64,000 nucleotides of DNA from the NCBI RefSeq assembly GCF_044647545.1, contig NZ_CP172818.1, one strand, 5' to 3'. Positions 5,252 to 37,964 of this stretch are shown here, piece by piece (within the stretch, counting starts at the first letter, position 1; every line of letters begins with the position of its first letter). The notes beneath the pieces are model-generated. The model saw only the letters and a program-made list of their open reading frames with translations, was not told where the DNA came from and made no database searches. Made by a program: the position numbers and the translations under genes. Source of the stretch: Escherichia coli (GTDB lineage Bacteria > Pseudomonadota > Gammaproteobacteria > Enterobacterales > Enterobacteriaceae).

Positions 5252-6940
5252 TCAGTTCACATCACGACTCATTTTTTTCGCTCTCACCGGCATCCCATTT
5301 GCCACATAATATCCCGCCGTGCTCCTCGGCAACGCATCCTTCCCGCGAATCATATCCGCTATTTTCTCGCCAATCATAATGGTCGTGGCGTTCAAATTGC
5401 CGGTGATAATTTGCGGCATAATTGACGCATCCACCACGCGCAGGCCTTCCAGCCCGTGTACGCGGCCTTCGCCGTCAACCACTGCCATCTCGTCATAACC
5501 CATTTTGCAGGTACCGCACGGGTGGAAGGCGGTTTCGGCGTGGTTACGCACGAACTCATCGAGCTGCTCATCCGTCTGGCATTCGACACCGGGGCTGATT
5601 TCGCGGCCACGATACTGATCCAGCGCCGGTTGATGCATGATCTCCCGGGTGATGCGAATTGCGTCGCGGAACTCCTGCCAGTCCTGCTCGTGCGACATGT
5701 AGTTAAACAGAATCGCTGGATGCTGGTGCGGGGCGCGGGATTTAATCCGCACATGCCCACGGCTTGGCGAGCGCATCGATCCGACGTGGCACTGGAAGCC
5801 GTGCTCTTTCACTGCGTTCGAGCCGTTATAGTTAATCGCTACTGGCAGGAAATGGTACTGAATATTCGGCCACGCAAATTCCTCACGGCTGCGAATAAAT
5901 CCGCCTGCTTCAAAGTGGTTGCTGGCACCAATGCCGGTGCCGCCAAACAGCCACTCCGCACCGATTTTCGGCTGATTCCACCACTGCAGGGCAGGGTAGA
6001 GGGAAACCGGTTCTTTGCACTCATATTGCAGATACATCTCCAGGTGATCCTGAAGATTTTCGCCGACGCCAGGTAATTCATGCACCAGCGGAATATCAAA
6101 CTCCGCCAGCAGTTCAGCGTTGCCGACGCCGGAGCGTTGCAGGATCTGCGGTGAAGCAATCGCGCCTGCACATAACAGCACTTCTTTATTCGCCGCCGCG
6201 CGGGTCGGAATGGTGCTGTCGCCTTCCAGCCACTCGACGCCCACCGCGCGTTTGCCGTCAAAAATGATGTGATCGGTCATGGCGTGAGTACGAATAGTCA
6301 GGTTAGGGCGCGATTTGGCCTGATCGAGATAGCCACGCGCGGTGCTGGCGCGACGGCCATGCGGCGTGACGGTGCGATCCATCGGGCCAAAACCTTCTTG
6401 CTGATAGCCGTTGAGATCGTCCGTGCGCGGGTAGCCCGCCTGCACGCCCGCTTCAATCATCGCTTCAAACAGCGGATTGACGCCGGGTTTGGAGGTGGTG
6501 ACGCTCACCGGGCCATCACCGCCGTGGTAGTCGTTCTCGCCCACATCGCGAGTCTCGGCCTTGCGGTAGTAGGGCAGGCAGTCGAGATAACTCCAGTTCT
6601 CCAGACCAGGTTCTTGTGCCCAGTTATCGAGATCCAGCGCATTGCCACGGATGTAGCACATACCATTGATCAGCGATGAACCGCCCAGACCTTTGCCGCG
6701 TCCGCACTCCATGCGGCGGTTGTTCATAAACGGTTCGGGTTCCGTCTCATAGGCCCAGTTGTAGCGTTTGCCCTGTAACGGGAACGCCAGCGCGGCGGGC
6801 ATCTGGGTGCGGAAGTCAAAGCGATAGTCCGGGCCGCCTGCTTCAAGCAGCAGCACGGTTATGTTCGGATCTTCAGTCAGACGGGTAGCGAGGACGTTGC
6901 CGGCTGAGCCGGCACCAATAATGATGTAGTCAAATTGCAA
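5252..6940 (-). CDS. betA: Choline dehydrogenase (GMC oxidoreductase), TTG start 5 nt after AGGAGG
   Basis: ORF track 5252..6985; N-terminal FAD motif [11 protein letters not shown]; TTG at 6940 with strong SD. Confidence 0.9.
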
Positions 6941-34199: not shown

Positions 34200-35455
34200 G
34201 TGTCGCAAGATAACAACTTTAGCCAGGGGCCAGTCCCGCAGTCGGCGCGGAAAGGGGTATTGGCATTGACGTTCGTCATGCTGGGATTAACCTTCTTTTC
34301 CGCCAGTATGTGGACCGGCGGCACTCTGGAACCGGTCTTAGCTATCATCAATTCTTTCCTCGCAGTTCTCATCGGTAATCTTCTCCTCGGTATTTACACT
34401 TGATTTCTCGGTTACATTGGCGCAAACCGGCCTGACCACTCATCTTCTTGCTCGCTTCTGGTTTGGTGTTAAAGGCTCATGGCTGCCTTCACTGCTACTG
34501 GGCGGAACTCAGGTTGGCTGGTTTGGCGTCGGTGTGGCGATGTTTGCCATTTCGGTGGGTAAGGCAACCGGGCTGGATATTAATTTGCTGATTGCCGTTT
34601 CCGGTTTACTGATGACCGTCACCGTCTTTTTTGGCATTTGGCGCTGACGGTTCTTTCGGTGATTGCGGTTCCGGCTATCGCCTGCCTGGGCGGTTATTCC
34701 GTGTGGCTGGCTGTTAACGGCATGGGCGGCCTGGACGCATTAAAAGCGGTCGTTCCCGCACAACCGTTAATTTCAATCTCGCGCTGGCGCTGGTTGTGGT
34801 CATTTTCTGGTGGGTACGCTCGCCGCTGGCGCCTTTTGTCCGGTTTGGTCGCAATGCCAAACTGGCGGTGCTGGTGGCGATGGTGGCCTTTTTCCTCGGC
34901 AACTGGTTGATGTTTATTTTCGGTGCAGCGGGCGCTGCGGCACTGCGCATGGCGGATATCTCTGATGTGATGATTGCTCAGGGCCTGCTGCTGCCTGCGA
35001 TTGTGGTGCTGGGGCTGAATATCTGGACCACCAACGATAACGCACTCTATGCGTCGGGTTTAGGTTTCGCCAACATTACCGGGATGTCGAGCAAAACCCT
35101 TTCGGTAATCAACGGTATTATCGGTACGGTCTGCGCATTATGGCTGTATAACAATTTTGTCGGCTGGTTGACCTTCCTTTCGGCAGCTATTCCTCCAGTG
35201 GGTGGCGTGATCATCGCCGACTATCTGATGAACCGTCGCCGCTATGAGCACTTTGCGACCACGCGTATGATGAGTGTCAATTGGGTGGCGATTCTGGCGG
35301 TCGCCTTGGGGATTGCTGCAGGCCACTGGTTACCGGGAATTGTTCCGGTCAACGCGGTATTAGGTGGCGCGCTGAGCTATCTGATCCTTAACCCGATTTT
35401 GAATCGTAAAACGACAGCAGCAATGACGCATGTGGAGGCTAACAGTGTCGAATAA
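34200..35455 (+). pseudogene. codB: Cytosine permease gene, split into 4 frame segments
   Basis: Track ORFs 34200..34403, 34417..34647, 34638..34910 and 34796..35455 read as consecutive permease segments; span 1256 bp. Confidence 0.7.
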
Positions 35456-36728
35456 CGCTTTACAAACAATTATTAACGCCCGGTTACCAGGCGAAGAGGG
35501 GCTGTGGCAGATTCATCTGCAGGACGGAAAAATCAGCGCCATTGATGCGCAATCCGGCGTGATGCCCATAACTGAAAACAGCCTGGATGCCGAACAAGGT
35601 TTAGTTATACCGCCGTTTGTGGAGCCACATATTCACCTGGACACCACGCAAACCGCCGGACAACCGAACTGGAATCAGTCCGGCACGCTGTTTGAAGGCA
35701 TTGAACGCTGGGCCGAGCGCAAAGCGTTATTAACCCATGACGATGTGAAACAACGCGCATGGCAAACGCTGAAATGGCAGATTGCCAACGGCATTCAGCA
35801 TGTGCGTACCCATGTCGATGTTTCGGATGCAACGCTAACTGCGCTGAAAGCAATGCTGGAAGTGAAGCAGGAAGTCGCGCCGTGGATTGATCTGCAAATC
35901 GTCGCCTTCCCTCAGGAAGGGATTTTGTCGTATCCCAACGGTGAAGCGTTGCTGGAAGAGGCGTTACGCTTAGGGGCAGATGTAGTGGGGGCGATTCCGC
36001 ATTTTGAATTTACCCGTGAATACGGCGTGGAGTCGCTGCATAAAACCTTCGCCCTGGCGCAAAAATACGACCGTCTCATCGACGTTCACTGTGATGAGAT
36101 CGATGACGAGCAGTCGCGCTTTGTCGAAACCGTTGCTGCCCTGGCGCACCATGAAGGCATGGGCGCGCGAGTCACCGCCAGCCACACCACGGCAATGCAC
36201 TCCTATAACGGGGCGTATACCTCACGCCTGTTCCGCTTGCTGAAAATGTCCGGTATTAACTTTGTCGCCAACCCGCTGGTCAATATTCATCTGCAAGGAC
36301 GTTTCGATACGTATCCAAAACGTCGCGGCATCACGCGCGTTAAAGAGATGCTGGAGTCCGGCATTAACGTCTGCTTTGGTCACGATGATGTCTTCGATCC
36401 GTGGTATCCGCTGGGAACGGCGAATATGCTGCAAGTGCTGCATATGGGGCTGCATGTTTGCCAGTTGATGGGCTACGGGCAGATTAACGATGGCCTGAAT
36501 TTAATCACCCACCACAGCGCAAGGACGTTGAATTTGCAGGATTACGGCATTGCCGCCGGAAACAGCGCCAACCTGATTATCCTGCCGGCTGAAAATGGGT
36601 TTGATGCGCTGCGCCGTCAGGTTCCGGTACGTTATTCGGTACGTGGCGGCAAGGTGATTGCCAGCACACAACCGGCACAAACCACCGTATATCTGGAGCA
36701 GCCAGAAGCCATCGATTACAAACGTTGA
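35445..36728 (+). CDS. codA: Cytosine deaminase, GTG start
   Basis: ORF track 35430..36728; GTG at 35445 gives 427 aa; HxH metal motif PHIHLD. Confidence 0.9.
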
Positions 36729-36750
36729 ACGACTGGGTTACAGCGAGCTT

Positions 36751-37150
36751 AGTTTATGCCGGATGCGGCGTGAACGCCTTATCCGGCCTACGTAGAGCAC
36801 TGAACTCGTAGGCCTGATAAGCGTAGCGCATCAGGCAATTCCAGCCGCTGATCTGTGTCAGCGGCTACCGTGATTCATTCCCGCCAACAACCGCGCATTC
36901 CTCCAACGCCATGTGCAAAAATGCCTTCGCAGCGGCTGTCTGCCAGCTGTAGTTTATGCCGGATGCGGCGTGAACGCCTTATCCGGCCTACGTAGAGCAC
37001 TGAACTCGTAGGCCTGATAAGCGTAGCGCATCAGGCAATTCCAGCCGCAGACCTGTGTCAGCGGCTACCGTGATTCATTTCCGCCAACAACCGCGCATTT
37101 ATCCAACGCCATGTGCAAAAATGCCTTCGCGGCGGCTGTCTGCCAGCTAT
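36751..37150. repeat. Tandem direct duplication, 2 x 200 bp at about 97% identity, each copy holding a REP element, a hairpin and the last ~85 bp of cynR
   Basis: Copy 1 at 36751..36950 and copy 2 at 36951..37150 aligned by eye; about 6 mismatches. Confidence 0.85.
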
Positions 37151-37964
37151 TTTTCCGCCGCAACAAAACCGCCGTTCTCTCCAGTAGTGGCGGGGCAAGA
37201 GAAATAGCTTTAAGCCCGTCATGTTGTGTGGCAATCGCTGCTGGTAACAATGTGGAAAGGGAAGTGCGGCGAATCAGCTCCAGAACCGCGCTAATTGAGT
37301 TCGCCTCAATGACCACCTGTGGATGTAGCCCCGCTTTCTCGCAGTAGTGGTCAATTTGCTCTCTGGTGGCAAATTCCGCGCTGAGCAGGACCAGTTTTTC
37401 ATCATGCAAGCGACTCAACGCCACCTGTTCATGGACGGCCAGCGGATGATGTTGCGCCACGACTAACGCTAAACTTTCTGTCAGTAAAGGAATTGCCTCC
37501 AGCTCCGGCGAATGCACAGGCGCGAAGGCAATCCCAACGTCCAACTCGTCGCGGCAAAGCATATCCTCGATTTTCTCCTGCGACATTTCCTGTAGCTGGA
37601 GCGTGATGCTGGGATAGCGCGCATAGAAATCCGCCATTAAGGGGCCGATAAAGTAGCTCGTAAAGGTGGGGGTGACGGCGATACGCAGCGATCCTCGCGT
37701 CAGATCGGCAACATCATGAATCGCCCGTTTACCCGCCCCCAGTTCCTGTAACGCCCGGCTGGCGTACTGTCGCCAGACTTCTCCTGCATCAGTGAGACGA
37801 ATCGTTCGCCCGCTACGGTCAAACAGCGGCACGCCTAAACTCTCCTCTAACTGGCGAATCTGCTGGGAAAGCGCAGGTTGGGAGACGTGCAACGCACTGG
37901 CGGCACGGGTGAAGCTGCCATGTTCAGCCACGGCAAGAAAATAATTGATATGTCGAGAGAGCAT
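37065..37964 (-). CDS. cynR: LysR-family activator of the cyn operon
   Basis: ORF track 37065..38048; ATG at 37964 gives 299 aa. Confidence 0.9.

Follow-up and report, generated by a model that had tools for sequence, protein, structure and literature searches.

An inherited 200-bp tandem duplication of a BIME and the 3′ end of cynR in the codA-cynR spacer of Escherichia coli

The spacer between the convergent genes codA and cynR in the stretch of Escherichia coli DNA that we analysed (64,000 nt, termed the window) carries a head-to-tail duplication of 200 bp in which each unit comprises a pair of inverted REP sequences (a BIME), a short hairpin and the end of cynR. This duplication is ordinary and inherited, and it was already known. 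It is present in the K-12 reference genome, its partial gene is annotated as a pseudogene by PGAP, and the locus is cited in the Discussion and Supplementary Fig. S7 of Ton-Hoang et al. (2012; NAR 40:3596, PMC3333891) as a BIME unit with a captured gene fragment. We consider it quite likely that the array is a near-neutral polymorphism, which would have been founded by one non-homologous duplication beside a BIME and then reshaped by unequal exchange and by shuffling between alleles, with cynR left intact.

The original prediction, made from the letters of the window, had described two adjacent 200-bp copies at about 97% identity, and these proved to be a genuine tandem duplication. Tandem Repeats Finder reports a single array at 36746-37148 (period 200, 2.0 copies, 96% matches, 0 indels, score 755), and a repeat finder pairs 36750-36948 with 36950-37148 at 97%. 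By direct count, the two head-to-tail units (Table 1) agree at 193 of 200 positions (96.5%), a match that cannot have arisen by chance over such a length. The seven mismatches, given as the letter in copy 1 followed by that in copy 2, are at 36749 (T, G), 36849 (T, A), 36852 (T, C), 36880 (C, T), 36900-36901 (CC, TA) and 36931 (A, G). Each unit runs in order through 9 nt, a Y REP, a 16-nt linker, a Z2 REP, a 24-nt hairpin and the last 84 bp of cynR.

Table 1. Features of the codA-cynR spacer and its surroundings, in window coordinates. Positions in the RefSeq K-12 record were converted as window = record - 319950. A slash within a sequence marks the join.
Feature	Position	Strand	Basis
codA (cytosine deaminase), convergent with cynR; stop TGA 36726-36728	35445-36728	+	RefSeq K-12 355395-356678; ORF end 36728
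Unique left spacer ACGACTGGGTTACAGCGAGC, the K-12-type left flank, co-inherited with the duplication	36729-36748		Allele comparison
Copy 1, distal 200-bp unit	36749-36948		Tandem Repeats Finder, repeat finder, direct count
BIME of copy 1, head to head: Y REP 36758-36791 (end CTAC), 16-nt linker, Z2 REP 36808-36836 (start GTAG)	36758-36836		Sequence reading
Hairpin of copy 1, AGCCGCTGATCTGTGTCAGCGGCT; 10-pair stem as + strand RNA	36843-36866		Repeat finder and folding
Dead cynR 3′ fragment, 28 codons including the stop	36865-36948	-	Translation; PGAP pseudogene, record 356815-356898
Novel junction CCAGCT/GTAGTTT; in-register microhomology absent	36948-36949		Direct reading
Copy 2, proximal 200-bp unit, running on into the remainder of cynR	36949-37148		Tandem Repeats Finder, repeat finder, direct count
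BIME of copy 2: Y REP 36958-36991, linker, Z2 REP 37008-37036	36958-37036		Sequence reading and folding
Hairpin of copy 2, AGCCGCAGACCTGTGTCAGCGGCT; overlaps the cynR stop codon, internal A-A mismatch	37043-37066		Repeat finder and folding
Intact cynR, LysR-type regulator of the cyn operon, 299 aa; stop TAG 37065-37067	37065-37964	-	RefSeq 357015-357914, WP_000952503.1

The architecture of the units is that of a BIME with additional flanking DNA. The two REPs of each unit are inverted, are separated by a short linker and carry the GTAG and CTAC tetranucleotides, and the whole arrangement is repeated at +200. They belong to a dispersed, high-copy family, as a REP-containing query was found at a median of at least 21 places per E. 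coli genome, and the BIMEs of the array are extragenic, between the convergent codA and cynR genes. Each copy had been predicted to hold a REP palindrome, a hairpin (AGCCGC..GCGGCT) and about 85 bp from the end of cynR. The hairpin and the cynR end (84 bp) are both there, but the number of REPs required correction to two inverted REPs per unit. The predicted fold of the BIME together with the hairpin is strong (z = -5.0). A known RNA family in the spacer was considered and rejected: Rfam naRNA4, which is REP325-derived, reached only a sub-threshold score of 39 bits against a gathering score of 59.5. Upstream of the array, the start of codA shows a routine difference between a mechanical ORF, which begins with ATG at 35430, and RefSeq, which uses a GTG 15 nt downstream at 35445 (protein VSNNALQ).

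The cynR gene is unaffected by the duplication. Because the duplicated segment includes the end of cynR, the gene is whole in the proximal copy, which contains its last 84 bp (37065-37148). Furthermore, cynR is annotated at full length and with an identical protein accession across strains with one, two and three copies. The distal copy was predicted to leave a pseudo-3′ fragment of cynR on the codA side of the real cynR stop, and exactly such a fragment is labelled in RefSeq as an incomplete pseudogene (‘hypothetical protein, missing N-terminus’). It lacks a start codon, and stops in its frame are located just upstream inside the REP, features that rule out a coding role. The 41-aa and 46-aa ORFs that overlap it in other frames are mechanical ORFs through REP sequence.

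Relative to the distal fragment, the true end of cynR carries two synonymous changes and two adjacent base changes that turn EE into DK. The C-terminus of K-12 CynR reads ..ALDKC.. (37100-37101), as against ..ALEEC.. in the distal fragment and in the single-copy E. coli alleles that were translated or inspected; the corresponding residues of E. whittamii CynR read ..ALDEC... Since EE is encoded both by the distal fragment and by the single-copy alleles, the functional cynR on the duplication haplotype is a two-residue C-terminal variant.

A 901-bp query around the array matches E. coli K-12 MG1655 and many further genomes at 100% identity. To count the duplication itself, we searched 5426 complete E. 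coli genomes with a 60-mer across the junction (36919-36978) and found it in 1540 of them (~28%), including K-12 MG1655 and B/BL21. Carriers of the junction make up 40% of the cynR-bearing genomes, and these frequencies are confounded by the heavy sampling of K-12 and B laboratory strains and of clonal lineages. The 60-mer occupies 1740 places over 1542 records, such that approximately 198 records have two junctions and hence three copies. The non-REP part of the unit (36837-36948) is found at 5548 places in 3840 genomes. This number of places does not exceed 3840 genomes plus 1740 junctions, and there is therefore no sign of duplications with a different junction; independent duplications of that kind were rejected on this count. 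In an evenly spaced sample of matches to the non-REP part, 24 of 60 records have at least two copies and 5 of 60 have three.

Some matches fall on plasmid records (7 places for the junction and 16 for the unit), which we take to be F′ lac-pro episomes of laboratory strains. The per-genome maximum is four unit places, and plasmid copies may account for it. At the megablast threshold, the 3′ end of cynR went unmatched in approximately 1586 of the 5426 complete genomes, among them some in which the query matched through its codA part alone (for example, hits H32-H38). The cyn region downstream of codA appears to be missing or replaced in a sizeable share of E. coli.

Comparison with the codA-cynR spacers of other E. 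coli strains, which had been suggested as a check on the duplication, revealed alleles with zero to three BIMEs and a single junction, CCAGCT/GTAGTTT, common to every multi-copy allele. The shortest class is free of BIMEs and has a 39-bp spacer with the hairpin alone (loci L004 and L014); in these two loci the hairpin is a perfect 10-pair palindrome, AGCCACTGACCTGTGTCAGTGGCT. Alleles with a single BIME have spacers of 132-146 bp (L002, L003, L012 and L015). Two copies are carried by K-12, TB354, D6 and MB06022, and also by Cn5 and GPEC1040, whose units are 186 bp long and both lack a 14-bp piece of the hairpin. Three copies are present in L005 and L006.

Several further variants of the spacer were observed. 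The 14-bp sequence CCAGCCGCAGACCT, the left arm of the hairpin that overlaps the cynR stop, is absent in some lineages, including O157:H7 (L003, L008 and L015). In GPEC1040 (L016/L019, NZ_CM142794.1), the 2 x 186 bp array is interrupted by IS621, an IS110-family element, exactly after the GTAG of the Z2 REP in the proximal unit (L016, ~950-1000; ..CTCGTAG/ATACTG..). This insertion parts cynR from the array and is consistent with REP targeting by IS621, which is a known habit of the element. Strain HS-01 (L010, NZ_CP172817.1) has a single unit and the K-12 flank, with an unrelated 32-nt string, CGCTAGTTAGATGCTACCCTTACGGCCACAAG, in place of the Y REP and the first part of the linker. Its CodA and CynR proteins are identical to those of K-12, and the replacement could be a scar, the mark of an engineered strain or an assembly error.

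These distributions suggest how the array began. On one ancestral haplotype, a segment that starts 9 nt before the codA-cynR BIME and takes in the final 84 bp of cynR would have been doubled head to tail once by a non-homologous join, in which CCAGCT of the cynR coding sequence would have met GTAGTTT, ahead of the Y REP, without microhomology. A 66-mer from the K-12-type left flank is present in 1513 genomes, compared with 1540 for the junction. As these numbers are nearly equal, the flank and the junction mark one haplotype and most simply one origin, which indicates that the duplication probably arose a single time on this left-flank haplotype. Whereas the structure of the array, its frequency among genomes, its one junction and the reciprocal products of exchange are observed directly, the manner in which the first join formed is inferred.

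The letters at the join are informative when alleles are compared. GAGC/GTAG is the left edge of the two-copy D6 allele and of alleles with one copy from both E. coli and E. whittamii. The last of these represents thin outgroup sampling, as E. whittamii, whose left flank is of the D6/K-12 type, was the sole genuine further match in a scan of species representatives, together with one chance match in a Planctomycete MAG. Because this edge is shared by all three, the G at the junction is ancestral and the T of K-12 at 36749 is derived. An apparent AGCT microhomology at the join was rejected, since its appearance in K-12 is owed to the derived T and it misses the 200-bp register by 1 nt. The comparison therefore favours an original join that formed without microhomology. 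A join by REP-REP recombination was also rejected: neither side of the junction falls in a REP, one being cynR coding DNA and the other a site 9 nt away from the Y REP. The original prediction had viewed the array as a REP-flanked tandem duplication and a route to local amplification. Amplification is borne out by the existence of three-copy arrays, but the repeats are neither flanked nor joined by REPs, which are inside the unit. The location of the join site beside a BIME may nonetheless be no coincidence.

Ton-Hoang et al. (2012; PMC3333891), who name codA-cynR as a BIME unit that captured a gene fragment, propose the involvement of the REP-associated transposase TnpAREP and state that mechanism and frequency are unknown. 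On such an account, the Y1 transposase TnpAREP (RAYT, the yafM product) would have cut single-stranded DNA at sites between C and T (C/T) away from the BIME and rejoined the ends, thereby amplifying the BIME with approximately 120 bp of flank that includes the cynR fragment. In vitro, the enzyme requires a GTAG-bearing REP and cleaves at C/T, both in linkers and at a distance (PMC3333891). Each unit of the array does hold a complete head-to-head Y/Z2 BIME that places GTAG near the breakpoints on both strands (Z2 REP on the plus strand, Y REP on the minus strand), and the right-hand breakpoint is 1 nt from a C/T (CCAGC/T, then A). However, this reaction needs C/T in register at both parental sites and at the junction, and the ancestral left edge, GAGC/GTAG, is without CT. 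Starting instead from the derived T of K-12 (GAGC/TTAG), the predicted junction is CCAGC/TTAGTTT with a 199-bp period, whereas CCAGCTGTAGTTT and a 200-bp period are observed. On the minus strand, the nearest C/T sites (AAAC/TAC and AGC/TGG) are 3 nt off on both sides. A simple C/T-to-C/T join by TnpAREP was thus rejected after both strands were checked, as neither provides C/T in register, and activity of the enzyme in vivo is not established in the available part of the same paper (PMC3333891).

Given these observations, we regard amplification by TnpAREP as rather unlikely. It is unlikely, too, that the array is a natural in vivo footprint of this enzyme, in which cutting away from the BIME would have been followed by end processing and by rejoining with capture of the cynR piece. 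If such a reading were true, the locus would be a tractable natural assay substrate for REP/BIME mobility.

Under the preferred reading of one non-homologous duplication followed by unequal exchange, the 200-bp repeats would, once formed, have served as substrates for homologous unequal exchange or slippage and given rise to three-copy and collapsed one-copy derivatives. The three-copy arrays (L005 and L006) are composed of copy 1, a unit with the G start and the body of copy 1, and then copy 2. The corresponding loss is seen in strain JNE151685 (L013), whose one unit follows the K-12 left flank and combines the T start with the body of copy 2. Gain and loss form exactly the reciprocal pair expected of an unequal crossover between the two copies, and both place the exchange within unit positions 2-100, a stretch of 99 bp with perfect identity that contains the BIME. 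The later changes in copy number are consistent with unequal homologous exchange in this 99-bp part of the unit. As at VNTR loci, a single junction is found with one, two or three copies, and the products of gain and of loss map to an identical stretch.

Recombination with other alleles would, in addition, have produced mosaic units. For example, the distal Cn5 unit shares its variants with the single unit of O157:H7, and in MB06022 the proximal unit is similar to the distal one of K-12. Several sites of mismatch between the two copies are polymorphic in single-copy alleles too. Because of these variable sites and mosaic units, the 3.5% divergence between the copies is no simple measure of age. 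The mismatches had earlier been taken to speak against a very recent assembly collapse; that the array is no collapse or artefact stands, but the mismatch count does not serve as a clock.

With the duplication, the convergent codBA and cynR transcripts share a 3′ region of 336 bp rather than 136 bp, which contains a second BIME and a second hairpin. This lengthening is likely to be the sole physiological consequence. According to one report (bioRxiv 10.64898/2026.03.23.713779), REPs located between convergent genes serve as bidirectional terminators or as blocks to decay, and for this reason the extra BIME could have a small effect. The duplication might even have been kept because it is useful, with the additional BIME and hairpin aiding termination or insulation, or stabilising the codBA and cynR 3′ ends, and with copy number tuning expression. 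In this position, REPs are associated with increased expression of the two genes and are often found at bidirectional terminators (bioRxiv 10.64898/2026.03.23.713779), the fold of the unit is strong (z ~ -5), and the allele is common and persisted until its copies differed at seven sites. However, no promoter-like sites were found inside the units, and no canonical intrinsic terminator was found in them, and terminator-like matches occur only at 37131-37148, inside the cynR coding sequence. Moreover, alleles with zero, one, two and three BIMEs and with half of the hairpin coexist in E. coli while cynR is intact, which argues against strong constraint. The 40% frequency could reflect selection, and could equally reflect clonal sampling, as laboratory strains of K-12 and B and clonal lineages confound it. 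On balance, a role that is maintained by selection seems quite unlikely, and we infer that the array is selectively near-neutral.

It is vanishingly improbable that the repeat is an assembly or sequencing artefact in one record, either as a spurious duplication or as a mis-collapsed array, as nothing favours this apart from the general risk of mis-assembly at tandem repeats, and the identical structure is present in 1540 independent complete genomes, is known in one-, two- and three-copy forms with consistent unit types and is annotated in RefSeq. The recurrence of one junction across so many genomes agrees with the earlier view that the array is not an assembly collapse. Long reads with one copy only had been named as the outcome that would speak against the duplication; this is not what was found, and the array is real and inherited.

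The practical value of the array is modest. It provides a clean 200-bp copy-number marker (one, two or three units) for the K-12/B-like spacer haplotype, and its use as a typing marker was not found in searchable papers. The repeat is also a possible trap for short-read assembly, for variant calling, and for the design of primers or recombineering substrates near the lac-cyn region. Finally, natural isolates preserve both reciprocal products of an unequal crossover at this locus, which makes it a worked example of the process.

The array has features in common with several known classes of repeats. BIME-2 arrays, which are said to have been described by Bachellier, Gilson, Hofnung and co-workers as tandem Y/Z2 REP pairs with short linkers and a strain-variable number, share with it the inverted Y and Z2 REPs, the extragenic location between convergent genes and the variation in copy number among strains. 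Unlike these arrays, the codA-cynR unit is 200 bp long with a BIME of just 79 bp, and its boundaries are outside the REPs. A BIME-2 unit consists of REPs and linker motifs only, whereas each unit here includes 121 bp of non-REP DNA, among it a non-REP hairpin and 84 bp of cynR coding sequence. Large tandem duplications of the chromosome mediated by REPs were reportedly described by Shyamala, Schneider and Ames in 1990, with the join point inside two distant REPs. These likewise involve REPs in tandem duplication and yield copies that are able to recombine. They differ in that they are large and joined from REP to REP, whereas the codA-cynR array is joined between cynR coding DNA and a non-REP site and holds its REPs internally.

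Bacterial minisatellite or VNTR loci and tandem duplications of partial genes resemble the array in their head-to-tail order, in a copy number that varies among strains (here 1, 2 or 3) through unequal exchange or slippage, and in the presence of a dead partial gene. Relative to minisatellite and VNTR loci, the codA-cynR array has a long period (200 bp) and few copies. No paper in the searchable literature was found that pairs ‘cynR’ with ‘tandem repeat’ for this locus. The codA-cynR repeat of Ton-Hoang et al. (2012; PMC3333891), in which a BIME and its flank, including a gene fragment, are repeated, is the same object at the same locus, with no structural difference from the array as that paper presents it in its available part. 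To that account, the present analysis adds the frequency of the duplication in the population, its range of one to three copies, the exact junction and the negative result for a simple C/T join.
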